55,998 bases of DNA, taken from Candidatus Hydrogenedentota bacterium. GTDB lineage: Bacteria > Hydrogenedentota > Hydrogenedentia > Hydrogenedentales > SLHB01. Made by a program: the position numbers and the translations under genes. The first letter of the stretch is position 1. Each line of letters starts with the position of its first letter. Where the stretch lies: assembly GCA_045863315.1 (NCBI GenBank), contig BTUX01000002.1, forward strand, positions 1-55,998. The letters run 5' to 3'. The notes under the pieces were generated by a model. That model searched no databases and was not told the origin of the DNA. It saw only the letters and a program-made list of their open reading frames with translations. This document shows, piece after piece, positions 1,511-55,998 of the stretch.

Positions 1511-1711
1511 CTAACCCGGAGCTTTCACGCACACGTGCGTTGGGGGATACACCATCGTACGCCTCGTAGCGTCACGCGTTGTCACGACGCGGCACGGCAA
1601 GACCTGTTGCGGGCGTGATGAATCCTCAATGCTTTCACTCACCAGCGTTCTCCATACCGTTTCTCATCAGTCGCCCGCGTCTACGCGGGCGACTGATGAG
1701 AAACGGTCTAG
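1511..1711 (+). mobile_element. diverged copy (I) of the ~192-nt structured MITE-like repeat
   Basis: CTAACCCGGAGCTTTCACGC...GGGGGATACACCATCGTACGCC...GCGTGATGAATCCTCA...CCGTTTCTCATCAGTCGCCCGCG-TCTA-CGCGGGCGACTGATGAGAAACGG-TCTAG aligns block by block with the copies at 36769, 38351 and 45701. The terminal hairpin is a perfect 23 bp. The P2 helix is partly decayed. Confidence 0.6.
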
Positions 1712-2850
1712 GCGCCCCGCCGCGCGCAACGCGCCAAGAGCTCCGCATACAGCGCGCGGTAGGCGTCAACCATGCGATCCACCGTCAGGTGCTCGCGCAC
1801 GTACGCGCTCGCGCGTCCTGCAAGGCGTGTCCGTTCGGCGGCGTCATCGAGCAAGCCCGCGATCGCATCGGCAAACACCTCGGGCCGGCGCGTTTCCACC
1901 AATCGGCCCGTGACGCCGTCCTGGATGAGTTCCGGGATTCCGCCCACAGCCCCGGCCACGACCGGCGTGCCGGCGGCCATGGCCTCGATGAGCGCGTTTG
2001 GGAACCCCTCGCGCTTCGAGCATAGCACGCACACGTCCATCAGTGCGTATACGTCCGCCAGTTCCGCAATGGCCCATGTGATCGTGAACCGGCCCTCCCA
2101 GTTGCGCGCGTACACTTTTTGCACAACCGACTCTCGCAACGGGCCTTTTCCCGCGAGCAGGAAGTGCAGGTCTGAGCGTCGGCGCATCAGTTCCTCCGCG
2201 ACTGACAGAAACAGCTCATGGTCTTTAACGGGGCTGAAGTTGGCGACCATTCCGACGACGTGGCGGCTCTTCGGCAAGTTGTACCGTTGTCGTAGCGCCT
2301 CGGGACCCATCCGGCTGACAAAGGAATCTGCATCCACGCCGTTGTGTATGACCCGAACCAACTCGGGATCGATTCCCTCCCGTTCGCGAGCGAACTCCGC
2401 CACGGCGCTGCTGTTCGCCACGATGCAGTCGACGTACCGATTCGCCATGCGCTGCATGCGCAGGTGCCGCGGCCGCATCCAATCCGCGAGTTCGCGTCTG
2501 CCCGAAACCAGCACGGGGACTCCCGTTTCGCGGGCCGCGCGGTTGACCGGCAAATCGAATCCGAACAGGAACGTATGCAGAATGTCGGGCCGGTGCGAGC
2601 AAAACACTTGGCGAACCCGCCTGCGGACGGTGAAGTCCCAACCGCCCCATCCCGGCAATTCGCGTACCACGACACCGAGTCGACGTATTTCACCGGCGAG
2701 ATCCCCTGCGGTCCGGGTACATACCACACTCAGCTCGTGATCGTGTACAAGTCCCTTCAAGAGATACACCAGTTGACGCTCGGTCCCGCCCGCGTTCAAC
2801 GTCGGAATCACGTAGCTGATTCGGCGAAGCGAACGGACCTCGGCGCTCAT
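1708..2850 (-). CDS. glycosyltransferase family 4 (GT-B fold)
   Basis: 380-aa ORF. N-terminus ISYVIPTLNAGGTERQ and C-terminal SKREGFPNALIEAMAAGTPVVAGAVGGIPELIQDGVTGRLV (EX7E-type region) are typical of GT4. Confidence 0.85.
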   Translation of the reverse strand: MSAEVRSLRRISYVIPTLNAGGTERQLVYLLKGLVHDHELSVVCTRTAGDLAGEIRRLGVVVRELPGWGGWDFTVRRRVRQVFCSHRPDILHTFLFGFDLPVNRAARETGVPVLVSGRRELADWMRPRHLRMQRMANRYVDCIVANSSAVAEFAREREGIDPELVRVIHNGVDADSFVSRMGPEALRQRYNLPKSRHVVGMVANFSPVKDHELFLSVAEELMRRRSDLHFLLAGKGPLRESVVQKVYARNWEGRFTITWAIAELADVYALMDVCVLCSKREGFPNALIEAMAAGTPVVAGAVGGIPELIQDGVTGRLVETRRPEVFADAIAGLLDDAAERTRLAGRASAYVREHLTVDRMVDAYRALYAELLARCARRGA

Positions 2851-9669: not shown

Positions 9670-9757
9670 GGCATGCCGGGTTGTGACGAGGCATGACGGT
9701 TTGCGTTGTACGACGTTGAATCCTCCAATGCGCGCGGGCAGGAAGAATACGGGTTAG
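9670..9757 (-). mobile_element. partial, diverged 5' half of the MITE-like repeat (copy A'), head-to-head with copy A
   Basis: Minus strand reads CTAACCCGTATTCTTCCTGCCCGCGCGCATTGGAGGATTCAACGTCGTACAACGCAAACCGTCATGCC. This aligns with CTAGCCCGGATTTTTCACACCCGCGGGCAATGAAGGATACAACTTCGTGCGGCACATACCTTTATGC. No matching 3' half was found. Confidence 0.45.
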
Positions 9758-9948
9758 CCCGGATTCTTCCTTGCCGCGCGCCCGGTGGGATACAACTTCG
9801 TGCGGCACATACCTTTATGCAGCGACAGGGAAAACGGGCTGTTGGTGTGAAAAATCCTCAACCGATTGACTTGTATGCTATCTCCTGAGCATTTCTCACC
9901 AGTTGCTCCCCGTCAACGGGGGGGCGACTGGTGAGAAATGCGGGTTAG
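9754..9948 (+). mobile_element. MITE-like structured repeat, copy A (chimeric 5' end)
   Basis: TTAG...TTAG flanks. From GGATACAACTTCGTGCGGCAC onward it matches the main family, including the terminal hairpin (apex variant TTGCTCCCCG-TCAA-CGGGGGGGCGA). The 5' P2 strand is the variant GGATTCTTCCTTGCC. Confidence 0.75.
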
Positions 9949-9990
9949 CCTGCATTTCGACGGGAGCGACCGGTGAGAAATGCGGGTCAG
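9949..9990 (+). repeat. extra truncated hairpin arm of the same repeat family
   Basis: CCTGCATTTC-GACGGGAGCGACCGGTGAGAAATGCGGGTCAG repeats the 3' arm of the hairpin directly after copy A. Most of the 5' arm is missing. Confidence 0.5.
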
Positions 9991-10184
9991 TGACAATGCG
10001 GTTTGTCGTTGCGTGCAAGTCATCCTTGCACTCAAGGGTTTTGGGACAACTTCTTGATCACGGGCGGATTTCCCTGCCTGCCGACGCTGCGGCAGGGTCA
10101 ACAAGGCAAGTGCAATTCAAGCGCCATTGCTTTTTCCGGCGTCCTGTTATGCGACGCAGGGGAGAACCGCGCGAAGCTCCCCGC

Positions 10185-11859: not shown

Positions 11860-11922
11860 CTAACCCGCATTTCTCGCCAGTCGCTCCCGTCATCGGGAGC
11901 GACTGGCGAGAAATGCGGCTAA
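11860..11922. repeat. solo hairpin module (copy B) of the MITE-like repeat family
   Basis: CTAACCCGCATTTCTCGCCAGTCGCTCCCG-TCAT-CGGGAGCGACTGGCGAGAAATGCGGCTAA forms a hairpin of about 27 bp. It is flanked by direct CTAA. The right CTA is the complement of the TAG stop of the ORF at 11919-12122. Confidence 0.75.
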
Positions 11923-20391: not shown

Positions 20392-20468
20392 GGGCGGCTA
20401 GCTCAGTTGGTTAGAGCATCTGCTTTACACGCAGGGGGCCGGGGGTTCGAGTCCCTCGCCGCCCACCA
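20392..20468 (+). tRNA. tRNA-Val (anticodon UAC), CCA encoded
   Basis: GGGCGGC-TA-GCTC-AGTTGGTTA-GAGC-A-TCTGC-TTTACAC-GCAGG-GGGCC-GGGGG-TTCGAGT-CCCTC-GCCGCCC-A-CCA folds as a cloverleaf by eye. The anticodon loop is TT-TAC-AC. Confidence 0.9.
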
Positions 20469-28527: not shown

Positions 28528-28726
28528 TTACCCCGGATTCTTCACGCCCACGCGCGTCCAAGGATACAACGTTGTTCAATGCATACCCTCATGTCTCGCC
28601 GGCGCGCGGCCCGGCAAAACTGGTTGTGGGCGTGAAGAATCCTCATCCAACGCGCTCCCATGCGTTATCCAGAACATGTCTCGCCACACCCCCCTCCACG
28701 GGGGAGTGGCGAGTAACGCGGGGTAT
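28528..28726 (+). mobile_element. diverged subfamily copy (D) of the MITE-like repeat
   Basis: TTACCCCGGATTCTTCACGCCCAC...AAGGATACAACGTTG...GTGGGCGTGAAGAATCC...TCTCGCCACACCCCC-CTCCAC-GGGGGAGTGGCGAG...CGGGGTA has the same order of helices with different sequence. Confidence 0.6.
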
Positions 28727-28900: not shown

Positions 28901-29092
28901 GTAGCCCGGATTTTTCATACCCGCGGGCAATGAAGGATTCAACTTCGTGAGGCACATACCTTTATGCAGCGACAGGGAAATCGGGCTGTTGGTGTGAAAA
29001 ATCCTCACCCGATTGACTTCTCTGCCATCACCTGAGCATTTCTCACCAGTCGCTCCCGTCATCGGGAGCGACTGGTGAGAAATGCGGGGTAG
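28901..29092 (+). mobile_element. MITE-like structured repeat, copy E
   Basis: GTAG...GTAG flanks. About 11 differences from copy G by eye. P1, P2 (one G-T wobble) and P3 are all intact. Confidence 0.85.
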
Positions 29093-36768: not shown

Positions 36769-36960
36769 CTAGCCCGGATTTTTCACACCCGCGGGCAATG
36801 AAGGATACAACTTCGTGCGGCACATACCTTTATGCAGCGACAGGAAAAACGGGCTGTTGGTGTGAAAAATCCTCACCCGATTGACTTCTATGCTATCTCC
36901 TGAGCATTTCTCACCAATCGCTCCCGTCATCGGGAGCGACTGGTGAGAAATGCGGGCTAG
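36769..36960 (+). mobile_element. MITE-like structured repeat, copy F
   Basis: CTAG...CTAG flanks. Differs from copy G at 4 of 192 positions. The right-hand CTA (36957-36959) is the complement of the phosphoesterase TAG stop. Confidence 0.85.
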
Positions 36961-38171
36961 TTCAGCGAGAACTGATCGATCGTCGCGCCTTTGTCGTCGA
37001 TGGCCTTGAATTCGAGGCCCGATTTCGACACGTTCACCACCCAGAAGTGCGCGGCGCTTTTCTCTTTCTCATTGTACCAGCGGGGCTGCGGATCGATAGT
37101 CCGAGGTCCCCGCCCGAAACAGCCGTCGCCGACGTACACCGTGCCGCCCTCTGCGACCTGATTGCCTTTCAGCGGTTTGGACCGTTTGAACACGTGATCG
37201 TGGTTCTCGAAGGCGACGGTGAGACCGTACTGGTCGAATAGGGGACCCCAATGCGTGCGGCCCAGCGCCGAGCCTGCGCCGTCAAAGGGCCGGTGCGCCG
37301 GATACAAGGGAACGTGGTACACCGCGAACTTGTATTTGACGTCTTTGTGTTTCTCGAGTTGCGCCTTTAGCCACTCCGTCTGGGCGCCGTTATGCGGGAC
37401 CAGGTGTCCCGAATCGAGAACGAAAAACGCGGCCAGATTTCCGAATTGCCGGCTATAGAAAAGGTTGTCGCCCTGCCGGCCGAACAGGCCGATATACCAA
37501 GGCGCGCGCAGTTCCAGATTGTCGCTCTGATACTGGTTCGTTTCGTGATTGCCGATGGCTGTCATGATCGGCACCATGCGACCGTCGGAGGTCACCATCA
37601 ATTCGTCCCAATTTTTCAGCCACTTGTCCCACGTCGCAAAGTCCCCGAGCAGACCGTTCACATACGCCAGGTCGCCGCCAATCACGCCGAAATCGGGGTC
37701 TTGTTTCCCGGCGAGTTTCAGCAATGGGATGACCAGTCCGTCCGCGCCCATGTCGCCGCCGCTGACGAACCGAAACGGCTCATCGCCGCCTGCCAGCGTG
37801 CGGAAGCGCCGCTCCTTCGACATGCCGTACTTCTGTTCGCCGGCGACGAAATAGTATGTCTTTCCCGGTTCGAGGTTTTTGAGTGCGGCGACGTAAAGCG
37901 TGCGCCGGTCGCTGATCTGCATCACAGCCTTGTGGTATTCCGCCTTCGCGCGATACTTGTACGCGCCGGTATTGCCTCCCCGCGACACCGTGTCGTAGTA
38001 GACATCGGCGGACTCGACGCGGTCGGGGAGAATGACGTTGATATCGATCGACCGCTCCGGCGCTCCCGAGTACGTGAGGTAAATATGCGACGGTTCGGCC
38101 GGCGCCGACACCGCCGCCAACACTGCGAACAAGGCAACCTGTGCGCGCACCATACAATAGACAGTTTTCAT
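36957..38171 (-). CDS. purple-acid-phosphatase-like metallophosphoesterase, exported
   Basis: 404 aa. Signal peptide, N-terminal FN3-like part, then GGDMGADG, GGDLAYVNG, GNHE and VYHVPLYP metallophosphatase motifs. Confidence 0.85.
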   Translation of the reverse strand: MKTVYCMVRAQVALFAVLAAVSAPAEPSHIYLTYSGAPERSIDINVILPDRVESADVYYDTVSRGGNTGAYKYRAKAEYHKAVMQISDRRTLYVAALKNLEPGKTYYFVAGEQKYGMSKERRFRTLAGGDEPFRFVSGGDMGADGLVIPLLKLAGKQDPDFGVIGGDLAYVNGLLGDFATWDKWLKNWDELMVTSDGRMVPIMTAIGNHETNQYQSDNLELRAPWYIGLFGRQGDNLFYSRQFGNLAAFFVLDSGHLVPHNGAQTEWLKAQLEKHKDVKYKFAVYHVPLYPAHRPFDGAGSALGRTHWGPLFDQYGLTVAFENHDHVFKRSKPLKGNQVAEGGTVYVGDGCFGRGPRTIDPQPRWYNEKEKSAAHFWVVNVSKSGLEFKAIDDKGATIDQFSLN

Positions 38172-38350
38172 TGTCGATTGGACCCCTTTCTAATTTAGCC
38201 CCGTTCCGCCGTTTCGTGGGAAGCGGCACCACACTATAAAACGAAGCCGACGCTTCGCGCCACCCAATCCGATCAGACGATTTTCGGCGCGGACCCCTTG
38301 CGCATGGCGTCGGCAGTCCCGCGCACGCGGGTCAAGGTGTTCACGCCGGC

Positions 38351-38542
38351 CTAGCCCGGATTTTTCACACCCGCGGGCAATGAAGGATACCACTTCGTGC
38401 GGCACATCCCTTTATGCAGCGACAGGGAAAACGGGCTGTTGGTGTGAAAAATCCTCACCCGATTGACTTCTATGCTATCTCCTGAGCATTTCTCACCAGT
38501 CGCTCCCGTCATCGGGAGCGACTGGTGAGAAATGCGGGCTAG
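38351..38542 (+). mobile_element. MITE-like structured repeat, copy G (used as reference)
   Basis: CTAGCCC / GGATTTTTCACACC / 69-nt loop / GGTGTGAAAAATCC / 31-nt linker / GCATTTCTCACCAGTCGCTCCCG-TCAT-CGGGAGCGACTGGTGAGAAATGC / GGGCTAG. Confidence 0.85.
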
Positions 38543-38834
38543 CCGGAACTCAACCAGATACTCCAAAAAAAGGCGGTCCGAATCCTGTTGAACGTCATCC
38601 ACGTGCTGGGCGAGCGCCTTGAGGCCGCCAATCTCCATATCGTCGAACACAAACTGGTCAGGGTCGAGTAGGCATCGGACAGTCATCTCGGGGTTTCGCC
38701 GAGGACGAGTGGGACTTCGTTCCCTGGCGGCGCGACCCGCGTCAGGGGAAGCGGAGTTTCGTTTCGACCCCGTCAAACGCTTATAATTCGGTCTTCCACG
38801 GCGAATCTTTTCAACTTGTCTCCAGGGGCATTTC

Positions 38835-40787
38835 ATGCGGTCTTGTGGAAGGTGGATCCGCACGCGACGGGCTGCGGCAGTTGTAATACTGTGCGGACGG
38901 GCTTGGGCGGATGCGCCGATCCTGCCCGCAGGAGTTTCCGAACGCCTCGCGCACCGGCAGGCCGACCTCGTGGTGGATCTGGGCGTGGGCCTGTGGGCCT
39001 ATCCGCTTCCCATGGACTTCGACGGCGACGGCGACCACGACCTGGTCGTCGCAACGCCGAACAAGCCGTCCAACGGCGTCTTTTTTTTCGAGAACAAGGA
39101 AGGCGACGTCAAGTTCCCCGTGTTCGAACGTTCTGTTCGCGTGAGCGACGCCGTCTTCGACCTCACCGTATCGTTTCCCCGAGGGGAGGCCGTGGTGCTC
39201 AGTCCCGAAACAAGGTATCCGCGGTTTTCGGAAACGGGCACAGCGGAAGGGCGACCCCTTGGAACCGAGGGGCCGCAGCTTGACGGCAAACTGCGCGGAC
39301 GGCAGTGGATGATGACCGACTACAATGGCGACGGCCGCGATGACCTTGTTGTAGGGATCGGGGTATGGACCGAATACGGATGGGACGACGCCTACAACGA
39401 GAAAGGCGAGTGGACGAACGGCCCGCTCCGGGGCTTTGTGTACGTATGCTTGAACGAGGGAGACGACGCGAGCCCCCGATATGCGGCGCCGGAGCAGGTC
39501 ATGACCGAAGACGGACCTGTCGACGTGTATGGCGCGCCGTCGCCCAACTTCGCGGATTTCGACGGCGACGGCGATCTTGATCTCGTATGCGGCGAATTTC
39601 TCGATCGGTTGACCTACTTCGAAAACATCGGTTCGCGAACGGGGCCGCGCTATGCCAAGGGCCGATGCCTCCAACACCAGGGCGAGGACATTCGCATGGA
39701 CCTTGAAATGCTCCAGGTCATCGCCATGGACTGGGACAAAGACGGCGACGTCGATCTTATCGTCGGGCAGGAAGACGGCCGCGTGGCCCTTGTCGAACAT
39801 GCGGGAGGCGTGGCGGACGGAATGCCGGTCTTTCTGTCTCCGCGTTTTTTTGAGCAGCGCGCCGACTTGCTCAAAGTCGGAGCGCTCAATACTCCGTCTG
39901 CATGCGATTGGGACGGCGACGGCGACGAGGACTTCATCGTCGGAGACACCGCAGGCTACATCAGCTTCGTCGAGAACTTGGACGGAGGCGATCCACCGGC
40001 GTGGGCAAAACCGGTCTATCTCGAGGCGGACGGGAAACGCATACGCATCCAAGCCGGGCCGAATGGTTCAATCCAGGGACCAGCGGAAGCGAAGTGGGGA
40101 TACACGGTGCCGTGTGTTGCTGACTGGAACCATGACGGTCTGCTTGATATCGTGATCAATTCCATCTGGGGCGAAGTGCTTTGGTACGAAAACGTCGGGT
40201 CCAGGACCGTCCCACGGCTCGCCGCCGCTCAGCCGCTCGAAGTGGAATGGGATGGATCGGCGCCGAAGCCGGAATGGAACTGGTGGGACCCCAAAGGCAA
40301 GCAATTGGTGACGCAATGGCGCACGAGCCCCGTCGTGCTGGACCTCGATCGCGACGGCCTGAACGATCTCGTGATGCTCGACCACGAAGGTTTTCTCGCG
40401 TTTTTTCAACGGCAACAAGGCGGCGCCGCTCTTCTGCTGCTTCCCGGAAAGCGCATATTCAAAGACGATGCCGGCAACTTGCTTCACCTTAATCCACACC
40501 GGGCGGGCAAGAGCGGTCGGCGAAAACTGACATTCGCGGATTGGGACGGGGACGGCAAACTCGATATCCTGATCAATGGGGACAGCATCGACCTGATGTT
40601 GAATGTCAGCTCGTCGCCGGACGAGTTCAATTTCCGCATGATGGGGTCCCTCGACGCGCGCAAGGTCGGCGGCCACACCACCTGCCCCACCACTGTCGAT
40701 TGGGATCGCGACGGCATCCCTGACCTGGTGTACGGTGCGGAGGACGGATACTTCTACTACCTGAAGAATCTCCGGTCCGCGAGGTAA
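38835..40787 (+). CDS. FG-GAP/VCBS repeat beta-propeller protein, exported
   Basis: 650 aa. Nine or more D-x-D/N-x-DG-x-x-D repeats (DFDGDGDHDLVV, DYNGDGRDDLVVG, DFDGDGDLDLVCG, DWDKDGDVDLIVG, DWDGDGDEDFIVG, DLDRDGLNDLVM, DWDGDGKLDILI, DWDRDGIPDLVY). Confidence 0.85.
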   Translation: MRSCGRWIRTRRAAAVVILCGRAWADAPILPAGVSERLAHRQADLVVDLGVGLWAYPLPMDFDGDGDHDLVVATPNKPSNGVFFFENKEGDVKFPVFERSVRVSDAVFDLTVSFPRGEAVVLSPETRYPRFSETGTAEGRPLGTEGPQLDGKLRGRQWMMTDYNGDGRDDLVVGIGVWTEYGWDDAYNEKGEWTNGPLRGFVYVCLNEGDDASPRYAAPEQVMTEDGPVDVYGAPSPNFADFDGDGDLDLVCGEFLDRLTYFENIGSRTGPRYAKGRCLQHQGEDIRMDLEMLQVIAMDWDKDGDVDLIVGQEDGRVALVEHAGGVADGMPVFLSPRFFEQRADLLKVGALNTPSACDWDGDGDEDFIVGDTAGYISFVENLDGGDPPAWAKPVYLEADGKRIRIQAGPNGSIQGPAEAKWGYTVPCVADWNHDGLLDIVINSIWGEVLWYENVGSRTVPRLAAAQPLEVEWDGSAPKPEWNWWDPKGKQLVTQWRTSPVVLDLDRDGLNDLVMLDHEGFLAFFQRQQGGAALLLLPGKRIFKDDAGNLLHLNPHRAGKSGRRKLTFADWDGDGKLDILINGDSIDLMLNVSSSPDEFNFRMMGSLDARKVGGHTTCPTTVDWDRDGIPDLVYGAEDGYFYYLKNLRSAR

Positions 40788-40809: not shown

Positions 40810-43140
40810 TTGGCAAAGAAAAAGAGAAGAGCGGCGACTTCCCCTTCCATTCCGGCTCCCGTATGGTCGCCCACTTCGCGCCAGGTGGCGCTGGGGTTGC
40901 TCGTACTCGTTCTCGTTGTTTTCGGCGACGTCTTCATCACCGCCAAGGACCTTGTGGCATCCAGCGTCGAGTTCGATGCGAAGATCTACTTCGCGCCTGT
41001 CCGCGAGTTCGCGTATGCCGAAATACTCAGTGGAAACCTTCCGCTGTGGAACCCTTATATTTTCTCCGGCGCGCCGTTTCTCGCAGGCATGCAATCGGCC
41101 CTGCTTTATCCGCTGAACCTGCACTACCTGATATTGCCCCTTGCGAAGTCCTTGAATGTCGAAATAACCCTGCACGTTTTCCTGCTGGGTTTGTTCATGT
41201 TTGCTTGGGCGCGAGACCGCGGCCTATCGACTACCGCTTCGGCGTTTTCCGCTACGGCCCTGATGTTCTCCGGCCCTTACTTCCTTCACGTGATGGCGGG
41301 CCACCTCACGCTCCTGGCCGCACTGGCCTGGACGCCGCTCGCGTTTCTCGCCGTAGACCGTCTGCTCGATACGGAGAGACCGAAGTGGATGTACGTGGGT
41401 GCGCTTGCGTTGACGATGTCCATTCTCGCCGGACACCCGCAAGGCGTGTTCTACACCATGGCGGTCCTAATCCCCTACGCGGTGCTTCGCTCGCTTCGCC
41501 GTTCCGGCAGCGGCAGGGTGATGGTCCCATTGGCCGGCTTGTTCGTCGCACCGCTGTTCCTGGCTGCGGCGCAGCTTTGGCCCGCCCTTGCGTTTTCGGG
41601 CGAGAGCGTCCGCGCCGGCGGCATCTCCTACGCCGCGGCAACGAGTTATTCGTTCCCACCCGAGAACCTGCTCACGCTGATAGTGCCCGCTTTTTTCGGA
41701 GATCATGTCCACACCTCCTATTGGGGGCGATGGGCCTACTGGGAAATGTCCGTCTTTTTGAGTGTCAGCGCCCTCTCGCTTGCCATGTACGCGATATTTG
41801 CCGGCGATAGTCGAACGCGATGGATGTGGCTGGGGTTCGCTGTCGCCTCGTTCCTAGTCGGACTCGGACGGTATACGCCGCTTTCATACCTGCTTTACTA
41901 CTTTATGCCGGGATTTGCTTCCTTCCGCAGCCCGTCCAAGGTCATCTTTTTCACCGTACTGTTCTTGTGTTTGCTTGCCGGTCACGGTTTGGATTCGCTC
42001 GTGCGCCGTCCGGGTCGGGCCCGAATTTTTGCCGCCGGCTCGGCCGTCCTGGGAGGAGGTCTGTTTGCCACGGCAATGGTGATTTACGTCATAACGCGCG
42101 GTGATGGCGAGCTGTGGCGCGGTGTGCTTAACCGAATGTATGTGCCCGGCGACGTATGGTGGGAGTTCTCCGATACGCTCGTGCAGGAATCTGCGGCGAA
42201 CGCCGTCCGATCCCTGATGGTGTCGGCCTTGACCCTGGCGCTTCTGGGAGGCCTGTATTGGGCGCGCGGGAAGACCCCATGGGCGGCGTATGGCGTCGCC
42301 GCCGTAGGTCTTATTGAGTTATTGGTGTTTGCGCGGGCATCGCGTCCCGTTTTTGACCTCGCCTCGACCCGGGTGGAACGGTACGACGCGATGCTGCGCG
42401 AACGGAAGGGAGACGGACGGGTCTTGGATGTGGCGACCGGCAATTATCTCATGCCGATGCGCGTGCCGGGGATGTGGGGATATGACCCCGCGGGCCTGCG
42501 GCGGTACCGTGAATTGCTCGCGCACACACAGGGGCCCCAACCCCTCTACGCAATCAACGAGGTCCGGTTCAATTCGTTTCATCCCTTGTTCGCCATGTTT
42601 CGATGCTACCTCGCGATTCAGTCGTCCGAACCTGACGAACGCACCTTTCCGCAAGACAACCCGCTGCCGCGGTTTCTCGTGTTGAACCGGTACCGAATCA
42701 TCGACGACGCGCACGAACGAATCGCCGCCGTCTGCGATCCCTCGTTCGACCCGCGCCAGGAAGTCATTCTGGAATCTCAACCCGACCCCCTGCCGGACGC
42801 CTCCGGTGCGACCGGGAGTGTGACGGTATTGGCGGAAACAACGGACTGCGTCGAAATCGAGGCCGAAATGTCAGGCGCGGGCATCCTCTTGATGACGGAC
42901 ACGTACGCATCCGACTGGCGGGCCGTGCCGTTACACGCGGGACCGCAGGCGGGCTACGCCGTCATGCCCGCCAACCATGCCCTGCGCGCCATTCCCTTGA
43001 GTCCGGGCAAACACCGGATTCGACTCGAATACGACCCGCCGGCGTTTCGGTACGGTATGTGGGTATCGGTGGCGTCGTTTGTCGCATGGAGTGGAGGGTG
43101 GGCGTACCATGTTCAGCGCAGGGCCCGGCCCAAGCCATGA
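40810..43140 (+). CDS. YfhO-family polytopic membrane protein (GT-C-like)
   Basis: 776 aa and multi-TM. N-terminal FAPVREFAYAEILSGNLPLWNPYIFSGAPFLAGMQSALLYPLNLHYL is the conserved YfhO-type region as I recall it. Confidence 0.75.
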   Translation: MAKKKRRAATSPSIPAPVWSPTSRQVALGLLVLVLVVFGDVFITAKDLVASSVEFDAKIYFAPVREFAYAEILSGNLPLWNPYIFSGAPFLAGMQSALLYPLNLHYLILPLAKSLNVEITLHVFLLGLFMFAWARDRGLSTTASAFSATALMFSGPYFLHVMAGHLTLLAALAWTPLAFLAVDRLLDTERPKWMYVGALALTMSILAGHPQGVFYTMAVLIPYAVLRSLRRSGSGRVMVPLAGLFVAPLFLAAAQLWPALAFSGESVRAGGISYAAATSYSFPPENLLTLIVPAFFGDHVHTSYWGRWAYWEMSVFLSVSALSLAMYAIFAGDSRTRWMWLGFAVASFLVGLGRYTPLSYLLYYFMPGFASFRSPSKVIFFTVLFLCLLAGHGLDSLVRRPGRARIFAAGSAVLGGGLFATAMVIYVITRGDGELWRGVLNRMYVPGDVWWEFSDTLVQESAANAVRSLMVSALTLALLGGLYWARGKTPWAAYGVAAVGLIELLVFARASRPVFDLASTRVERYDAMLRERKGDGRVLDVATGNYLMPMRVPGMWGYDPAGLRRYRELLAHTQGPQPLYAINEVRFNSFHPLFAMFRCYLAIQSSEPDERTFPQDNPLPRFLVLNRYRIIDDAHERIAAVCDPSFDPRQEVILESQPDPLPDASGATGSVTVLAETTDCVEIEAEMSGAGILLMTDTYASDWRAVPLHAGPQAGYAVMPANHALRAIPLSPGKHRIRLEYDPPAFRYGMWVSVASFVAWSGGWAYHVQRRARPKP

Positions 43141-43183
43141 TTCGATTCGTCCATACGTGGCCGGACGGCGTCGCCCAAGCACG

Positions 43184-45568
43184 ATGGCAAGCCACGCCAA
43201 ACCAGACGTCGTGCGCACGGGGCGGGAGCGCAAGCCCATGGCAATGAGGTCGACGCTCCACAGCCGCATCGCGTGGGCGCAATCGTATTCACGCACAGTC
43301 GCGTGTCTAATACTAATGGCGCTCGTGCTTCTCATGTTTGGCGATGTTTTATTCACGGCGCGCGATATCGTCGCGTCCCATAATCAGTACGACGCCAAGT
43401 GCTATTTCGCCGCCGTGCGCAGCTTCGGTTTCGACGAGATTCGCAACGGCAACCTCCCGTTGTGGAACCCGTACATTTATTCGGGTGCGCCCTTTGTCGC
43501 GGGTTTTCAGTCGGCGCTGTTTTACCCGTTGAATTTGCACTATCTCGTCCTACCGCTCGCCAAATCGCTCAACCTGGAAATCGTGCTGCACGTGGGTCTC
43601 GTTGGCGTGTTGATGTTCATGTGGGCGTGCGACCGCGGTCTGTCGACCAAGGCCGCGCTTTTCGCCGCCATCGTCCCCACGTTCTCCGCCCCGTTCTTCC
43701 TCCATGTGATGCCGGGGCACCTCACTATGCTGGGCGCCATGTCGTGGACCCCGCTTGCGTTTATGGCCGTTGACCGAGTTCTAGAGACGCGCCGTGTCTA
43801 CTGGGCCTTCGTGGGGGCGACGGCGCTCACCATGACCATTCTCGCCGGTCATCCGCAGGTTGTATTCTGTTTGCTCGTTGCTCTCGGACCCTACGCGGCG
43901 ATTCGCTGGATGCAGAACCCGCATCGGGCAACCGCCGCGGCACGGCTGGCCTTCCTGTTCGGTGCGCCCGTCTTTCTCGCGGCCGCGCAACTTTGGCCCG
44001 GCATCGCGTCAACAGATGAGAGCATCCGGGCCGGCGGCATGGATTACGCTGTCGCATCGAGCCTGTCGTTTCCGCCCGAGAATCTACTGACATTCTTCGC
44101 GCCCACATTCTTTGGCGATTCCGAAGCGACGACGTATTGGGGCCGCTGGGTCTACTGGGAGTCCTGTGCGTTCATCGGCGTGACCGCATTGTCGCTGGCT
44201 ATGTATGGAGTGGTCGCGGGCCGGCAGCGCGCCCGATACCTGTGGCTGGGCATGGCGCTCGGCGTGATTGCCGTGTCCCTTGGCCGGTACACGCCGTTGC
44301 ACCGCGCGCTGTACGCGGCGGTCCCCGGTTTCGACGCGTTCCGATGTCCGACCAGGCATTTGTTTCTGGCCGTGCCGTTTCTGGCGTTGCTGGCGGGCCA
44401 CGGTATCGATACGCTTTCACAACGCCCCAGGCGTGTGCCCGTATTGGTTTTCACCACGTTTGCCTGCGCAATTGCGATGTTCGTGGCGGCAGGTCTTGTC
44501 GTGTGGGCCGGTGGACAAGGAGATGCGGCGAGCGCATGGGCGCGCCTGTTGGCCTGGATGCACACGCCCGGCGAAAGCCGCTGGAAGTACAGCGACGCAT
44601 GGGTCGCGGCTTCGGCAAACCACGCTGTACGTTCCTTGATTGCAGCGGCGACCACAAGCACTTTGCTTGCCGTCCTGTATCTCGCCGCGCGTCGCCGGAC
44701 TTGGCCCGTCTACGCCATGATCGCCTTGGGAACGCTGGAGCTCATGGTATTCGCGCGAATCTCCCGGCCTTCATTTGATCTCGCGTCCCTCCGGCGGCCC
44801 GAACTCGAATCGTTTTTGCATTCGCAGGGCGGCGATTTCCGCGTGTTCGATCAGACGATCGAGAACTATCCCCTTGAGATCCGCGTTCACGACATGTGGG
44901 GATACGATCCCGCCGCCCGCCGCCGGTACACGCAACTCGTCGCGTATACTCAAGATGCTCGGGCGGAAACCGACTTGAACGAGTTCGGGTTCAAGCAATT
45001 TCATCCGCTGTACGCGATGTTTCGCTGCGAATACGTGATCATGTCGCGGTACAATCCCGACAACGTGGCCCGGCTTGCGAACGTGCTGCCACGGGCCCTG
45101 CTGATAGGCCGGTTCCGTGTGATCGAAGACGAGGACGAGCGCATCCGCGCCGTCGCGGATCATTCGTTTGACCCGAGGGACATTGTCATACTGGAATCCC
45201 AGCCCGATCCGGCGCCCGAGCCCGACGGAGCGGGGGGAGTCATACGATGTATAGACGAATCGACCGACCGCTTCATCGTCGAGGTCGAGGCAACGCGCCC
45301 CTCGATTCTGCTTATCACGGACTCCTACTCGAAGGACTGGCGGGCGACCCCGCTGTCGCAGGGACCTCAATCGCAGTACGAGATTCTACCCGCAAACCAT
45401 GCGCTGCGCGCGATACCGCTCGCCGCGGGGTCTCATCGGATCCGGTTCGAGTATGCGCCCCCCTCGTTCGCGTGGGGCATCCGGACGTCGATCGTCTCGT
45501 TGACCGTGTTCAACGCGGCCTGGATCGGTTGCCTTGTGTTCACGCCGCGACTACGGAAGCCGTCATAG
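43184..45568 (+). CDS. YfhO-family polytopic membrane protein, tandem paralogue
   Basis: Colinear with the preceding gene (FAAVRSFGFDEIRNGNLPLWNPYIYSGAPFVAGFQSALFYPLNLHYL). The start is uncertain: 43184 (MASHAK) or 43238 (MAMRS). The ORF-track start at 43079 overlaps the upstream gene. Confidence 0.75.
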   Translation: MASHAKPDVVRTGRERKPMAMRSTLHSRIAWAQSYSRTVACLILMALVLLMFGDVLFTARDIVASHNQYDAKCYFAAVRSFGFDEIRNGNLPLWNPYIYSGAPFVAGFQSALFYPLNLHYLVLPLAKSLNLEIVLHVGLVGVLMFMWACDRGLSTKAALFAAIVPTFSAPFFLHVMPGHLTMLGAMSWTPLAFMAVDRVLETRRVYWAFVGATALTMTILAGHPQVVFCLLVALGPYAAIRWMQNPHRATAAARLAFLFGAPVFLAAAQLWPGIASTDESIRAGGMDYAVASSLSFPPENLLTFFAPTFFGDSEATTYWGRWVYWESCAFIGVTALSLAMYGVVAGRQRARYLWLGMALGVIAVSLGRYTPLHRALYAAVPGFDAFRCPTRHLFLAVPFLALLAGHGIDTLSQRPRRVPVLVFTTFACAIAMFVAAGLVVWAGGQGDAASAWARLLAWMHTPGESRWKYSDAWVAASANHAVRSLIAAATTSTLLAVLYLAARRRTWPVYAMIALGTLELMVFARISRPSFDLASLRRPELESFLHSQGGDFRVFDQTIENYPLEIRVHDMWGYDPAARRRYTQLVAYTQDARAETDLNEFGFKQFHPLYAMFRCEYVIMSRYNPDNVARLANVLPRALLIGRFRVIEDEDERIRAVADHSFDPRDIVILESQPDPAPEPDGAGGVIRCIDESTDRFIVEVEATRPSILLITDSYSKDWRATPLSQGPQSQYEILPANHALRAIPLAAGSHRIRFEYAPPSFAWGIRTSIVSLTVFNAAWIGCLVFTPRLRKPS

Positions 45569-45700: not shown

Positions 45701-45892
45701 CTGCCCCGGATTTTTCACACCCGCGGGCAATGAAGGATACCACTTCGTGCGGCACATACCCTTATGCAGCGACAGGGAAAACGGGCTGTTGGTGTGAAAA
45801 ATCCTCACCCGATTGACTTCCATGCTATCTCCTGAGCATATCTCACCAGTCGCTCCCGTCATCGGGAGCGACTGGTGAGAAATGCGGGCTAC
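45701..45892 (+). mobile_element. MITE-like structured repeat, copy H
   Basis: CTGC...CTAC flanks. About 7 differences from copy G. The right-hand CTA (45889-45891) is the complement of the pgeF TAG stop. Confidence 0.85.
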
Positions 45893-46569
45893 AGCATAAT
45901 CAGGGCGAGGTTTCGCGCACCATTGGCGTCCGCGCGGTGGGAGTGAAACCGGCCCGTCGTGATGGTGCATATGCCGCTGACCTCGATGTTCGCGCGCGGC
46001 ACCCCTGCCGCTACGAGTTGGATTGCATTTGCTTCCCAAAGATCGAGGAGTCGACCGCGCACGGGAAGGCCCGCCCCCGCAAAATCATCCGCCAGTTCCT
46101 GGGACACCTCGTAGGCGGAGGGCCCGGCCGAAGGACCGACGACCGCGCGAACGGTGGACGGGGAGACTTCGTACTCGCGGACCATTGTGGCGACGGCCTG
46201 CGCGGCGATGTTGCCGCGGGTGCCGGCACGGCCGGCATGCACGATACCCACCACGCGGCGGACGGGATCGAACAGATACAAAGGCACGCAATCGGCCACG
46301 CTCACCACGAGCGGCAATCCGGACACATCGGTAATCAAACCATCCGTATTCGAGTACGGAAAGGCATCGCCTTTCCGAGCGGGGCGGACACAAGTCCCGT
46401 GGATTTGTTGACCGTGCGCGACGCGTTCCGGGCCGACGCCGCACGCCGCGAAGAATTGCGATTGCGCCTCCCGGCCGCAATCCCCGTTCAAACGGCAGTC
46501 CCCATCGCTCTTGTCCGACATCACGGCAAGAGAAGCGCCAAGCGACTCCAGGAACTCAAAATGGACCAT
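45889..46569 (-). CDS. pgeF: YfiH/PgeF family (laccase-domain, peptidoglycan-editing/purine nucleoside phosphorylase-like) protein
   Basis: Start taken at MVHFEFLESLG (46569). QIHGTCV...ADCVPLYLFDPVRRVVGIVHAGRAGT...CTITTGRFHSHRAD are family motifs. The ORF-track start at 46644 is possible. Confidence 0.8.
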   Translation of the reverse strand: MVHFEFLESLGASLAVMSDKSDGDCRLNGDCGREAQSQFFAACGVGPERVAHGQQIHGTCVRPARKGDAFPYSNTDGLITDVSGLPLVVSVADCVPLYLFDPVRRVVGIVHAGRAGTRGNIAAQAVATMVREYEVSPSTVRAVVGPSAGPSAYEVSQELADDFAGAGLPVRGRLLDLWEANAIQLVAAGVPRANIEVSGICTITTGRFHSHRADANGARNLALIML

Positions 46570-46771
46570 TGGAGGAATTATGTCGAATCTCGCCACCCGT
46601 TTCACGCGCCTTACGGGAGCGGCCGGAGGGCGACTTGTATTCAAAGACCCTTGCGCTTGACGACCATCGGAGGAGTCCGCCGGTATCGTCGGTCATGTTC
46701 GACTTCAGGCGTCGGCCACACCGACGAAAGGCCGCGAATTGGCGCCGACTGTTTCGTCGATCGGTCTGAAA

Positions 46772-48641: not shown

Positions 48642-48838
48642 TGCATCCTCATTGTCATCCGCTCCGCATCGCTGCTCATTGTAGGAGGTCGGGGGGACGC
48701 ATCACAAGGGGACCTTGCGCGACATGGATAGCGCCTTGGCCGCATTCCTCACGCGCCGCTCCGCGTCTTGAGAGTAGATAAGCGCATGTGTTGTACGACG
48801 GTGTATCCCCCAATGCGCATGTGGGCGAGGTATGGGGG

Positions 48839-50812: not shown

Positions 50813-50931
50813 GCCGTCTACCCCGCCTTTTTCACACGCTTGGTTGTGGGAGGATGCAACACCGAACGTCCTCTCTGCCCGTATTGCCGCGCGACTCTTG
50901 TTCAATGCAGGTTGAGCGTGCGAAATGCGGT

Positions 50932-52594: not shown

Positions 52595-54178
52595 CTACTG
52601 GGCGGCCATCGTCTTTCCCTGCTCCGTCGCCAGTTTTCTCAGCTCGGTTTTCAGAATTTTGCCGGTCGGGCCGAGCGGCAGGCTCTTTACGAACTCGATG
52701 TGGCGCGGATACTTGTACGCGGCCATCTCTTTTTTCGCCCACGCAATGAGTTCTTGCTCGGTAATCCGTGCTCCCGTCTGGGGTATCACGTAGGCCATCA
52801 CTTCTTCCCCGTATTCCTCGTGCGGCACGCCCACCACCGCGGCCAGAGAGACGTCGGGATGCATCATGAGCACTTCCTCGACCTCGCGGGGATACACATT
52901 GAACCCGCCTCGGATGATCATGTCTTTGACCCGGTCCACAATGTAGTAATAGCCGTCTTCGTCCTTGTAGCCGATGTCGCCGCTATGGAACCAGCCGCCG
53001 CGGAAGGCCTCGTCGTTCGCTTCGTCGCGCTTGTAGTACCCCTTCATGATGTTGTGCCCGCGAATGACGATCTCGCCGGGTTGGCCCACGGGAAGCTCGT
53101 TCATGTGTTCGTCGACCACTTTCATCTCGACGCCCCACACCGGCGTGCCGATGGAGCCCGGTTTGCGCTGCTTTTCGAGCTGATTGAAACTGGCCACCGG
53201 CGACGTCTCCGATAGACCGTACCCCTCGAGAATGGGGACATTGAACTTTTCCTCGAAACGCTTCATCACTTCGACCGGCATTGCCGCGCCGCCGGAGTTG
53301 CAGATGCGAAGGGTCTTCGCGATCTTCTCGACGTTGAATTTGTCGAGTTCGGGATAGTTGAGCAGGTCCCAGTACATGGTGGGGACTCCGGAAAACATGG
53401 TGATGCCGTCGTCCTGGAAGGAGCGCAGGACGGCCCCCGGTTCGAACCGCGCGTGCAGGACCAGCGTGGCCCCCGCCAGGATGCCCGCCATCATCTGGCA
53501 GGTGAATCCGAACGAATGGAACAACGGAAGGACCACCAAGAGAATGTCGTCTTTTGTCGCCCGTCCCAGGTCACGCACCACCATGGTATTGATGGTGATG
53601 TTCGAATGGGTCAACTCCGCGCCTTTGGGCCGGCCGGTGGTGCCCGAGGTGTAAATGATCAAACAGGTGTCGTCCGGCCTGCACTGGACCGTCTCGAACG
53701 TATAGGCCTGGTTATGCATCAGGTCCGAAAGGGTCGGGACGCCCTCGAGCGGCGAATCCGCGCCGGGAATGGTCGGAATCACCCACAGGTTCTTGCACGT
53801 GCCGGCCTCCTTGAATCCGGCATACCCCTCGTCCAGCACGCGCAGTTGTTCGGTCCCCTGGAAGCAGATGAAGCCCACCGAGTCGGAATCGGACAGGTGG
53901 TAGGCGAACTCGCGGTGTTTGAGCAGCGGGTTCAGCGGCACCACGACCGCGCCCGCCTTCAGAATCCCGAACACGACGATAGGAAAGTACGGCAGATTGG
54001 GACAACACAGCGCGACCTTGTCGCCCTTACGCACCCCCTTGGCGTACAGGCCGTTCGCGACCTGATTGGCCATCGCGTTGACCTGCGCGTAGCTGAGTTC
54101 GATGTGGTCGAACTTCACCGCCACCTTGTTCGGATACGCCTTTGCGCTTTCTTCCAGCAATGTCGCAAGGTTCATCAT
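52595..54178 (-). CDS. AMP-dependent synthetase/ligase (long-chain-fatty-acid--CoA ligase-like)
   Basis: 527 aa. IIYTSGTTGRPKGAELTH (A3/P-loop), GYGLSETSP, WFHSGDIGYKDEDGYYYIVDRVKDMIIRGGFNVYPREVEE. Confidence 0.9.
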   Translation of the reverse strand: MMNLATLLEESAKAYPNKVAVKFDHIELSYAQVNAMANQVANGLYAKGVRKGDKVALCCPNLPYFPIVVFGILKAGAVVVPLNPLLKHREFAYHLSDSDSVGFICFQGTEQLRVLDEGYAGFKEAGTCKNLWVIPTIPGADSPLEGVPTLSDLMHNQAYTFETVQCRPDDTCLIIYTSGTTGRPKGAELTHSNITINTMVVRDLGRATKDDILLVVLPLFHSFGFTCQMMAGILAGATLVLHARFEPGAVLRSFQDDGITMFSGVPTMYWDLLNYPELDKFNVEKIAKTLRICNSGGAAMPVEVMKRFEEKFNVPILEGYGLSETSPVASFNQLEKQRKPGSIGTPVWGVEMKVVDEHMNELPVGQPGEIVIRGHNIMKGYYKRDEANDEAFRGGWFHSGDIGYKDEDGYYYIVDRVKDMIIRGGFNVYPREVEEVLMMHPDVSLAAVVGVPHEEYGEEVMAYVIPQTGARITEQELIAWAKKEMAAYKYPRHIEFVKSLPLGPTGKILKTELRKLATEQGKTMAAQ

Positions 54179-54238
54179 GGTCCGTTCACTCCCATGGCGA
54201 TAGGCCCCGACAACCCCGGGGGCCGCCGATTTTCTTCC

Positions 54239-55813
54239 TCATTTCACGCCGGCGCCTTGGAGCGCCAACTTGCGCAACTCCGTCTTCAGGATTTTTCCGG
54301 TCGGCCCGATGGGCAGGCTGTTCACGATCTCGACCATCCGCGGATACTTGTACCCCGCAAGCTGCGTCTTACCCCACGCGATGATGTCCTCCGGCGTCAA
54401 GGTCGATCCGTCTTGGAGGATAACGTACGCCTTGACCTCCTCGCCGTATTCCTCGTGAGGGACCCCGACCGCCGCGGCGAGGGATATCTCGGGGTGCGAC
54501 ATCAGCACTTCCTCGATCTCGCGCGGGTACACGTTGAACCCGCCGCGAATGATCATGTCCTTGATCCGGTCCACGATGAAGAAGTATCCGTCCTCGTCCT
54601 TGTACCCCACATCGCCGCTGTGAAACCAGCCGCCGCGAAACGCCTCTTCGTTGGCTTCGTCGTGCTTGTAGTAGCCCTTCATGACGTTATGGCCCCGAAT
54701 GACGATCTCGCCGGGTTGGCCCACGGGCATCTCGTTCATGTTCTCGTCCACCACTTTCATTTCGACGCCCCAAATCGGAACGCCGATCGATCCGACCTTC
54801 TGCGGCATGTCGATCCGGGTGAAACTGGCGGACGGCGAAGTCTCGCTCAGCCCGTAGCCCTCGAGGATTTTGATGCCGAACTTCTCCTGAAACCGCGTCA
54901 TGACATCCACCGGCATCGCGGCGCCGCCCGACACGCCCAATCGCAAGCGGCCCCGGATCTTCTCGAGGTCGAACTTGTCGGCCTCGGGATAGTTCAACAA
55001 GTCCCAATACATCGTCGGAACGCCGGCAAAAAGCGAAACGCCCTCGGCCTCGAAGATGCGCCATACCTCGCCCGCCTCGAAGCGAGGCAGCAAGACGACC
55101 GTCGCCCCGCCCAAAGTGACGGAATTGAGCAATGCCGAAAGGCCGAACGAGTGGAACAGCGGGAGGACCGCCAAGGTCACGTCATCGGGTCTCCCATCGA
55201 TCAGATGGCGAGACACCAGGCAGTTCATCAACATATTCGAGTGCGTGAGCTCGGCGCCCTTGGGCCGGCCTGTCGTGCCGGACGTGTAAATGATCACGCA
55301 GGTGTCGTCCGGCCGACATTGGACCGTCTCGAACGTGGTCGGCTGATCGCGCATGAGATCGCCGAGGGTGGGAACGCCGGGGATCGGCGAATCGCCCCCG
55401 GGAATCGTCGGGATGATCCAGAACTTCTCGCAGGTCTTGGTCTGCTTGAATCCCTCGTAAGCCGTCTTGCCGATGGGCAGGTCTTCGCGTCCTTCGAATG
55501 CGATGCAGGCCACGGAGTCCGAATCGGACAGGTGGAACGCGACCTCCCGCTCGCGCAGCAGCACGTTGAGCGGCACGAATACGGCCCCGGTCTTCAGAAT
55601 TCCGAAGTAGACAATGGGGAAATAGGGCAGGTTCGGGCAGGACAAGGCGACCTTGTCTCCCTTCTGGATACCTGCCGCTGTTAATCCATTGGCGACCTGG
55701 TTCGCCATGTCATTGACGGTCCGGTAGTTCAACCGGAAGTGGTTGAACACGACGGCGTCGTGATCCGGTTTTTCGCGCGCGCTGTTCTCGAGAATGACCG
55801 CCAGGTTCATCAT
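54239..55813 (-). CDS. AMP-dependent synthetase/ligase, tandem paralogue
   Basis: Start at MMNLAVILENSAREKPD (ATG 55813 after GGGAGGG), colinear with the neighbour (MMNLATLLEESAKAYPN). The same adenylation motifs are present. Confidence 0.9.
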   Translation of the reverse strand: MMNLAVILENSAREKPDHDAVVFNHFRLNYRTVNDMANQVANGLTAAGIQKGDKVALSCPNLPYFPIVYFGILKTGAVFVPLNVLLREREVAFHLSDSDSVACIAFEGREDLPIGKTAYEGFKQTKTCEKFWIIPTIPGGDSPIPGVPTLGDLMRDQPTTFETVQCRPDDTCVIIYTSGTTGRPKGAELTHSNMLMNCLVSRHLIDGRPDDVTLAVLPLFHSFGLSALLNSVTLGGATVVLLPRFEAGEVWRIFEAEGVSLFAGVPTMYWDLLNYPEADKFDLEKIRGRLRLGVSGGAAMPVDVMTRFQEKFGIKILEGYGLSETSPSASFTRIDMPQKVGSIGVPIWGVEMKVVDENMNEMPVGQPGEIVIRGHNVMKGYYKHDEANEEAFRGGWFHSGDVGYKDEDGYFFIVDRIKDMIIRGGFNVYPREIEEVLMSHPEISLAAAVGVPHEEYGEEVKAYVILQDGSTLTPEDIIAWGKTQLAGYKYPRMVEIVNSLPIGPTGKILKTELRKLALQGAGVK

Positions 55814-55998
55814 GAGACAGGACCCTCCCACTTGATATGCTATGCCTCCACCATGACCCGCGGCCCGAGACCCGCCGCGATATCAACACAACGATCCAGC
55901 CAGACCGTTGATACACACAGCACCGATCATGCGAAGGGGGCGCGCCCGCGAAAAGGAACGCGAACCCGGACACCCGGGGTGTCGCCTCATTCCCCGCC

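Follow-up and report, generated by a model that had tools for sequence, protein, structure and literature searches.

Introduction

Correia elements of Neisseria, and the classical ERIC and RUP repeats of enterobacteria and streptococci, measure 100-200 nt, have inverted ends and use a TA-centred target. Transcribed together with neighbouring genes, they fold into long hairpins, each family forming one long hairpin from its two ends. Here we compare these and other described systems with a repeat family found in a 55,998-nt stretch of DNA from the uncultured phylum Hydrogenedentota (contig BTUX01000002.1 of assembly GCA_045863315.1; hereafter the window), taking as our point of departure one 192-nt copy at positions 38351-38542, which we call copy G. 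A preliminary description of this copy had proposed that its three helices, P1, P2 and P3, form a three-way junction preserved by compensatory changes between subfamilies, so that a folded single strand of RNA or DNA would be under selection. Our analysis indicates that the feature is most probably one copy of a family of foldback transposons resembling miniature inverted-repeat transposable elements (MITEs), non-coding, non-autonomous and recently mobile. The family itself is new but of an ordinary kind, and it is not a new structured RNA.

The insertion sequence (IS) IS5 generates 4-bp YTAR duplications (PMC5009759), and IS711 also targets YTAR and is associated with palindromic repeats (PMC2266754). 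Like MITEs derived from IS5, the element described here is small and non-coding, carries terminal inverted repeats (TIRs), is flanked by a 4-bp duplication of the CTAG/CTAA/TTAG type, and is present in many dispersed intergenic copies that are polymorphic between strains. It differs from them in having an internal inverted copy of each end, which gives nested foldbacks; in addition, two of its targets (GTAG and CTAC) depart from strict YTAR and no parent IS was identified. In Brucella, the Bru-RS1 and Bru-RS2 repeats are likewise intergenic palindromes, of about 100 nt, tied to the YTAR-targeting IS5-family element IS711 (PMC2266754); however, IS711 duplicates TA only and the Bru-RS repeats are described as insertion hot spots, whereas the elements here have themselves been inserted with a 4-bp duplication.

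Similarities to other classes of palindromic repeat are accompanied by equally clear differences. REPINs and REP-BIME elements are also extragenic palindromes that can form long hairpins in single-stranded DNA (ssDNA) or RNA and occur as singlets, doublets and clusters, and compensatory changes across their hairpins have been reported to be common (PMC3116915). REPINs nevertheless make no target-site duplication and are associated with a tyrosine transposase present in single copy, while our element has a variable 4-bp duplication and the window holds no REP-associated tyrosine transposase (RAYT). Palindrome-associated transposable elements (PATEs) derived from IS200/IS605 share the small size, the absence of coding capacity and the subterminal hairpins at both ends, but have neither the inverted terminal repeats nor the target duplication that are both found here. 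Finally, in contrast to the MITE-like Correia, ERIC and RUP repeats, each end of our element pairs with its own internal copy to give the three-way junction, and there is no sequence similarity to these families (no Rfam, plasmid or phage match).

Results and discussion

Copy G is built from foldback modules

The helices of copy G were rechecked in the sequence, and their coordinates and letters are as originally listed. P1 pairs 38351-38357 (CTAGCCC) with 38536-38542 (GGGCTAG), P2 pairs 38358-38371 (GGATTTTTCACACC) with 38441-38454 (GGTGTGAAAAATCC) around a 69-nt loop, and P3, which follows a 31-nt linker, pairs 38486-38508 with 38513-38535 as a perfect 23-bp helix closed by the loop TCAT. 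The minimum-energy RNA fold of the copy is exactly this three-way junction, at -99.1 kcal/mol (z = -9.4 relative to shuffles); as DNA, the copy folds with an energy of -56.3 kcal/mol (z = -9.4). The opposite strand reaches -102.5 kcal/mol (z = -10.8), which is equal to or better than the plus strand. The helices of copy G are not a product of chance, yet folding singles out neither strand.

Each helix can be assigned to parts of a transposon, which consists of 184 nt plus the 4-bp duplication. P1 is made up of the duplicated target tetramer (4 bp) and the terminal CCC/GGG. In P2 the left terminal repeat pairs with an inverted copy of itself inside the element, and P3 joins the right terminal repeat to its own internal inverted copy in the same way. 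Aligned with the reverse complement of the right end (CCCGCATTTCTCACCAG), the left end (CCCGGATTTTTCACACC) is identical at 13 of 17 positions and at 12 of the first 14. The motif G-S-ATTT-Y-TCAC is present four times per element in alternating orientation (-> <- -> <-). Because the 5' arm of P2 and the 3' arm of P3 are the terminal inverted repeats, and because P3 is mobile on its own (see below), the 'three-way junction' is a composite of foldback modules. The parts of copy G are:

38351..38542, plus strand: copy G, the full 192-nt element including both 4-bp flanking duplications; flanks CTAG/CTAG
38351..38354, unstranded: left target-site duplication CTAG, the outer 4 bp of P1; a single tetramer at the empty sites of copies F and H
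38355..38371, plus strand: left terminal inverted repeat CCCGGATTTTTCACACC, comprising inner P1 and the 5' arm of P2
38385..38398, plus strand: unpaired motif GGATACCACTTCGT in the P2 loop; its invariant columns are found in all subfamilies and in decayed remnants too
38441..38454, plus strand: 3' arm of P2, the internal inverted copy of the left end
38486..38535, plus strand: P3 foldback module, a 23-bp perfect palindrome with loop TCAT, whose 3' arm is the right terminal repeat
38539..38542, unstranded: right target-site duplication CTAG

The best-conserved segment of the element lies outside the helices. GGATAC(A/C)(A/C)C.TCGT, unpaired in the P2 loop, is retained in all subfamilies and remnants (also at 48790-48805 on the minus strand), and AATCCTCA, directly after P2, is likewise conserved; both may be candidate protein-binding sites.

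Empty sites identify a duplicated target tetramer

Two sites that are filled in the window are empty in related sequences. At the position of copy F, a Logan contig (L013, about 98.9% identical over 9.1 kb) reads GATTGACGCG-CTAG-TTCAGCGAG, with GACGCG-CTAG-TTCAGC as the immediate context of the single CTAG, while the window reads GATTGACGCG-CTAG-[CCCGG...184 nt...GCGGG]-CTAG-TTCAGCGAG. At the position of copy H in a JGI contig from a relative (L005; HslU 92% identical), yfiH and the yfhO-like gene converge and meet directly at a single CTG-TAG-CCG. The tetramer in L005 is one GTAG, or CTAC in the orientation of the element, where the window has CTGC...CTAC. Insertion was precise in both cases, so the target duplication accounts for the outer 4 bp of P1, which are not a selected helix.

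The flanks of the remaining copies agree with this assignment. In copies E, B, X and H, where the flanks are non-palindromic, they repeat directly and not inverted (GTAG, TTAG, CTAA and CTGC/CTAC, respectively). At the two informative outer positions, left and right flanks are identical in 13 of 18 comparisons, against 4.5 expected by chance. The element duplicates a 4-bp NTAN target with the consensus CTAG, resembling YTAR: CTAG (twice), TTAG and CTAA agree with YTAR, GTAG and CTAC are off at one position, and the flanks of C27 and D are unequal. We also considered a TA-only duplication of the IS630/IS711 kind and rejected it, since it would require one further terminal mutation, by chance equal to the flank, in every one of E, B, X and H.

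The target is uncommon in this DNA. From base composition about 196 occurrences of CTAG would be expected; the window has 12, five of which are element flanks. CTAA, TTAG and TTAA are also depleted, by 6- to 12-fold. The element targets rare CTAG/TAG sites, which are often gene stops. Three minus-strand genes end in this way, their TAG stop codons (1708-1710, 36957-36959 and 45889-45891) lying in the right-hand tetramers of copies A, F and H, respectively:

1708-2850, minus strand: GT4 glycosyltransferase gene; stop TAG in the right-hand CTAG of copy A
36957-38171, minus strand: purple-acid-phosphatase-like phosphoesterase gene; stop TAG in the right-hand CTAG of copy F
45889-46644, minus strand: yfiH; stop TAG in the right-hand tetramer of copy H

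At the empty sites the TAG of the tetramer serves as the native stop. C/G-TAG stops are thus sites at which the element lands, and its duplication restores and keeps the stop.

The site of copy G itself (window 38345-38375) differs in L013 (positions 1-45), where an R-type end, CCCGCATTTCTCACCAGTCGCCC, adjoins the left flank in place of the L-type end. Judged from this junction, CCCGCATTTCTCACCAGTCGCCC suggests a second event, or an inverted or different element at the same CTAG.

The window contains a dispersed, recently mobile family

Copies were located by repeat finding, pattern search and an nhmmer profile over the window. We found eight full copies and at least six that are partial, solo or decayed, together making up 3.1% of the 56 kb. 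Every copy is intergenic with respect to the predicted genes or lies on a gene's stop codon, and nearly all of the long inverted repeats of the window are members of the family. In addition to copy G, these include:

1511..1711, plus strand: copy A (copy 'I' of the preliminary description), old subfamily; flanks CTAA/CTAG
9682..9757, minus strand: B2, a partial copy comprising the left part, placed head-to-head to B with a common TTAG
9754..9948, plus strand: copy B, a chimera with the left arm of another subfamily and a broken P2; flanks TTAG/TTAG
9945..9991, unstranded: B3, an internally deleted solo P3-type hairpin within the right-hand TTAG of B; flanks TTAG/TCAG
11860..11922, unstranded: X, a solo P3-type hairpin, CTAA-(25-bp perfect arm, TCAT, 25-bp arm)-CTAA
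27112..27306, minus strand: copy C27, the sole full copy in reverse orientation; flanks CTAA/TTAG
28528..28726, plus strand: copy D, diverged subfamily with a perfect 17-bp P2; flanks TTAC/GTAT
28901..29092, plus strand: copy E; flanks GTAG/GTAG
36769..36960, plus strand: copy F, a recent insertion absent in the strain about 98.9% identical; flanks CTAG/CTAG
45701..45892, plus strand: copy H, at the yfiH stop and empty in L005; flanks CTGC/CTAC in element orientation
48745..48829, minus strand: decayed A-like remnant
50813..50924, plus strand: decayed remnant (weak)

The P3 module alone, of about 55 nt, is also a mobile unit, of which X is an intact and B3 a decayed form. The clusters B2-B-B3 and D beside E arise by insertion into a regenerated target, and the left arm of B belongs to the same subfamily as that of B2. 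Eight of the nine oriented full copies lie on the plus strand. The neighbouring genes, which are mostly on the minus strand, do not account for this 8:1 orientation bias, and the GC skew in the window is too weak to tie it to replication.

HslU and CarA homologues assign the contig to Candidatus Hydrogenedentes/Hydrogenedentota. The element had no match in plasmids or phages (blastn) or in a scan of viral contigs, and nhmmer found no copies in around 100 kb from relatives (HslU 82-92% or CarA 85-87% identical). A scan of the genome collection with a gapped pattern returned, among the matches listed, only an unrelated chance palindrome (L001). A JGI metagenome scan with a 22-mer matched only a 23-nt fragment: positions 395-417 of L004 (JGI Ga0105241_10417293), an unrelated soil contig, are an exact copy of CTGTTGGTGTGAAAAATCCTCAC from the region of the P2 3' arm and contain nothing else of the element. 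The 23 nt may be left over from a copy or belong to a related end sequence. Within the species, short-read (Logan) contigs at 98.8-100% identity break off in the copies, which fits a repeat; the family explains the assembly breaks that occur every few kilobases in this organism.

Because a Pfam scan found no transposase, RAYT (Y1) or integrase among 40 open reading frames (ORFs) of the window, the elements are non-autonomous. Signs of a transcript were similarly lacking in the places searched. Neither a sigma-70-like promoter nor an intrinsic terminator consensus was found in or beside copy G, and no T-run follows P3 on either strand; Rfam gave no match at the gathering score, and at a permissive E-value gave only chance hits to miRNA hairpin models. 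One minus-strand frame is open through the whole element, but in a search of 5.8 billion proteins the only homologue of its translation was the window's own ORF, with none from other copies. In this region (38351-38863, minus strand) the gene caller placed a 111-aa ORF, P0001, which reads into copy G and is probably either a spurious call or a short gene in which the insertion has replaced the C-terminus.

Pairing is conserved across copies, unevenly between helices

The alignment of the eight full copies comprises 44 pairs, and 93.6% of its paired cells are retained as pairs. Both sides have changed in 10 of the 44 pairs, compared with 3.4 +/- 1.4 in shuffles (0 of 500 shuffles reach the observed number) and at most four in controls with slid partners. 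Seven of these double changes lie in P3, two in P2 and one in P1. The proposal of conserved pairing rather than conserved sequence is borne out, above all in P3. RNAalifold applied to the copies recovers the same three helices, with a covariation term of +0.74, which is slightly unfavourable. The signal derives from about three lineages, namely the main family, D and A.

Several particulars given earlier for individual copies are also seen in our alignment. The P2 of copy D is indeed perfect (17 bp), the P3 of copy A is perfect and departs from the main family at five pairs, the C-to-T change in the P2 of copy E leaves a wobble pair, and a variant P1 exists in C27 (CTAACCCG / CGGGTTAG). By contrast, one A.A mismatch interrupts the P3 quoted for copy D. 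That diverged copies keep their helices is only partly true, with exceptions that include P2 in A and B and the outer part of P3 in D. In copy A, P3 is a perfect 25-nt palindrome, while P2 has decayed to four internal mismatches and one terminal mismatch and P1 is broken. The left arm of copy B derives from another subfamily, which accounts for five P2 positions that are not Watson-Crick pairs. In copy D, four of the six outer P3 pairs are broken. Uncompensated changes in P3 occur in F (A.C) and H (A.A). At the outer end of P1, E has G.G, H has C.C and D has T.T in place of pairs, and B has no more than wobble pairing. P3 is perfect in five of ten hairpins, that of the otherwise decayed copy A included.

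If the paired strand were RNA, the mismatches might be expected to favour those tolerated on one strand. G.T mismatches, tolerated on the plus strand, number five and A.C mismatches, tolerated on the minus strand, number four, and for this reason there is no RNA-like strand asymmetry. The earlier suggestion that the arms are not only protein-binding terminal repeats holds good in one respect, as simple terminal repeats leave the internal partner arms without explanation.

A block change in the copy D hairpin between strains

Two contigs from related strains, L016 (99.8% identical) and L015 (99.1% identical), span C27, D and part of E. Between L016 and the window, 1515 nt contain only three differences (28688, 28694 and 28697), all of which fall within 10 nt in the left arm and loop of D's P3. 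In L015 and L016 this hairpin is a perfect 34-nt palindrome, CTCGCCACTCCCCCGTCGACGGGGGAGTGGCGAG; in the window it is imperfect, CTCGCCACACCCCCCTCCACGGGGGAGTGGCGAG. L015 also has an uncompensated stem change at 28683. Three independent mutations within 10 nt, with 0 of 1505 positions changed elsewhere, are implausible, and thus the allelic difference is a single event that altered one arm as a block. The D alleles show a block change within otherwise identical sequence.

Hairpin-templated mutation, by a quasipalindrome or template-switch route, can make block changes of this kind. Parsimony predicts that the perfect form of D is ancestral, and a hairpin-templated mechanism predicts a change from imperfect to perfect. 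Whichever direction was taken in D, the comparison of alleles indicates that palindrome symmetry in this family is made or lost by mutation at the DNA level.

Origin of the compensatory changes and alternative explanations

Taken together, the small size, lack of coding capacity, terminal inverted repeats, duplication at filled versus empty sites and dispersed copies with insertion polymorphism are the traits of a MITE. We propose that the element, which has imperfect terminal inverted repeats (CCCG-S-ATTT-Y-TCAC) and inserts at NTAN tetramers, would be mobilized in trans by a putative IS5-like, YTAR-targeting DDE transposase whose gene would lie in another part of the genome. Arm symmetry would follow from the need of transposing lineages for intact, matching ends, and long palindromes with short loops may be re-symmetrized or changed as a block by hairpin-templated replication or repair. 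Such processes could give 'compensatory' differences between subfamilies with no RNA function. Effects on neighbouring genes, such as a very stable hairpin directly after the targeted TAG stops, would be by-products. The covariation is real, but it is as expected from inverted ends, target duplication and palindrome-specific mutation.

A number of observations sit less comfortably with a plain MITE. The flanks of C27 (CTAA/TTAG) and D (TTAC/GTAT) are inverted and not direct. Within the main family, substitutions number 4 in 80 stem columns against 18 in 104 unpaired columns (Fisher p = 0.016), and the stems are under some constraint or arm homogenization. The perfect 25-nt P3 of copy A despite its decayed P2 hints at maintained pairing, which the plain MITE model does not require. 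Among the ORFs of the window there is no autonomous partner with matching ends, and we know of no established role for internal partner arms in DDE transposition.

These observations bear on the proposal that the compensatory substitutions reflect selection on the three-way junction as a functional folded strand, whether a small RNA, a cis-acting RNA or an ssDNA transposition intermediate. The excess of covariation over shuffled and slid controls, the recovery of the same three helices by RNAalifold, the better conservation of stems than loops in the main family and the perfect P3 in half of the hairpins, including that of decayed copy A, all speak for such a proposal, and REPIN hairpins have been the subject of a similar claim (PMC3116915). 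As stated, however, we consider it unlikely. Outer P1 is the target duplication, and P2 and P3 are foldbacks of the terminal repeats; P2 is lost in A and B and the outer part of P3 in D; both strands fold equally well, with G.T and A.C mismatches at 5 to 4 favouring neither; and the region carries no promoter or terminator consensus and has no Rfam match. The unfavourable covariation term (+0.74) and the small number of independent lineages (about three), the uncompensated stem changes in F, H and the L015 allele of D, and the one-arm block change, which offers a mutational route to symmetry at the DNA level, all weigh on the same side. Moreover, compensatory change in the hairpins of miniature mobile DNA had already been described, in REPINs (PMC3116915). 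A folded single strand may still have a role in the mobility of the element. A fuller version, in which the element is mobilized or kept through folded ssDNA, the junction is recognized by its shape by an enzyme and perfect P3s are actively maintained locus by locus, seems to us improbable; were it true, the element would be a REPIN-like, long-lived intragenomic replicator that still makes target-site duplications, and to our knowledge no mobile elements of this REPIN-like, target-duplicating kind have been described in this candidate phylum.

Movement as ssDNA could also be ascribed to a RAYT or to a tyrosine (HUH) transposase of the IS200/IS605 type that recognizes P2 and P3, making the element similar to REPs or REPINs. 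A hairpin does lie beside each end, there are solo palindromes and higher-order clusters (B2-B-B3; D beside E), all copies are extragenic with a conserved tetranucleotide NTAG adjoining the palindrome, and old and young subfamilies occur together in one lineage. We nonetheless regard this as very unlikely, as such systems make no target duplication and insert beside a fixed tetra- or pentanucleotide, whereas the tetramer here varies, is duplicated, and stands exactly once in the empty sites. The element also has genuine inverted repeats at its ends, and no Y1 transposase is present among the ORFs of the window. The least probable of the explanations, and one to which we give almost no weight, is that a palindromic intergenic motif with a host function, for example a protein-binding site, was spread by recombination or duplication and not by transposition. 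The conservation of the unpaired GGATAC..C.TCGT in all subfamilies would suit such a motif, but exact insertions with target duplication at unrelated loci, presence/absence differences between strains about 98.9% identical, and copies on the stop codons of unrelated genes speak against it. We also rejected retrons, integron attC sites and omega or bridge RNAs on the basis of copy number, target duplication and the absence of partner genes.

The MITE-like reading documents an active miniature transposon family in an uncultured phylum, and it carries a caution for the interpretation of covariation. In palindromic mobile DNA, covariation does not count as evidence for an RNA gene, since compensatory evolution is mimicked there by target duplications, by inverted ends and by block mutations templated by hairpins.

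Other features of the window

The window contains a tRNA-Val(TAC) gene at 20392-20468 on the plus strand, on which Rfam and ARAGORN agree; a second ARAGORN prediction, tRNA-Gly at 8204-8292 on the minus strand, falls within a gene of the beta-lactamase family and is probably false. An exact-protein look-up with the YfiH sequence returned no record. Two pairs of tandem paralogues are also present: two genes for YfhO-like membrane proteins on the plus strand (40810-43140 and 43079-45568), and two genes for AMP-binding, acyl-CoA synthetase-like proteins on the minus strand (52595-54238 and 54239-55882), which lie 1635 nt apart and share 73-82% DNA identity.

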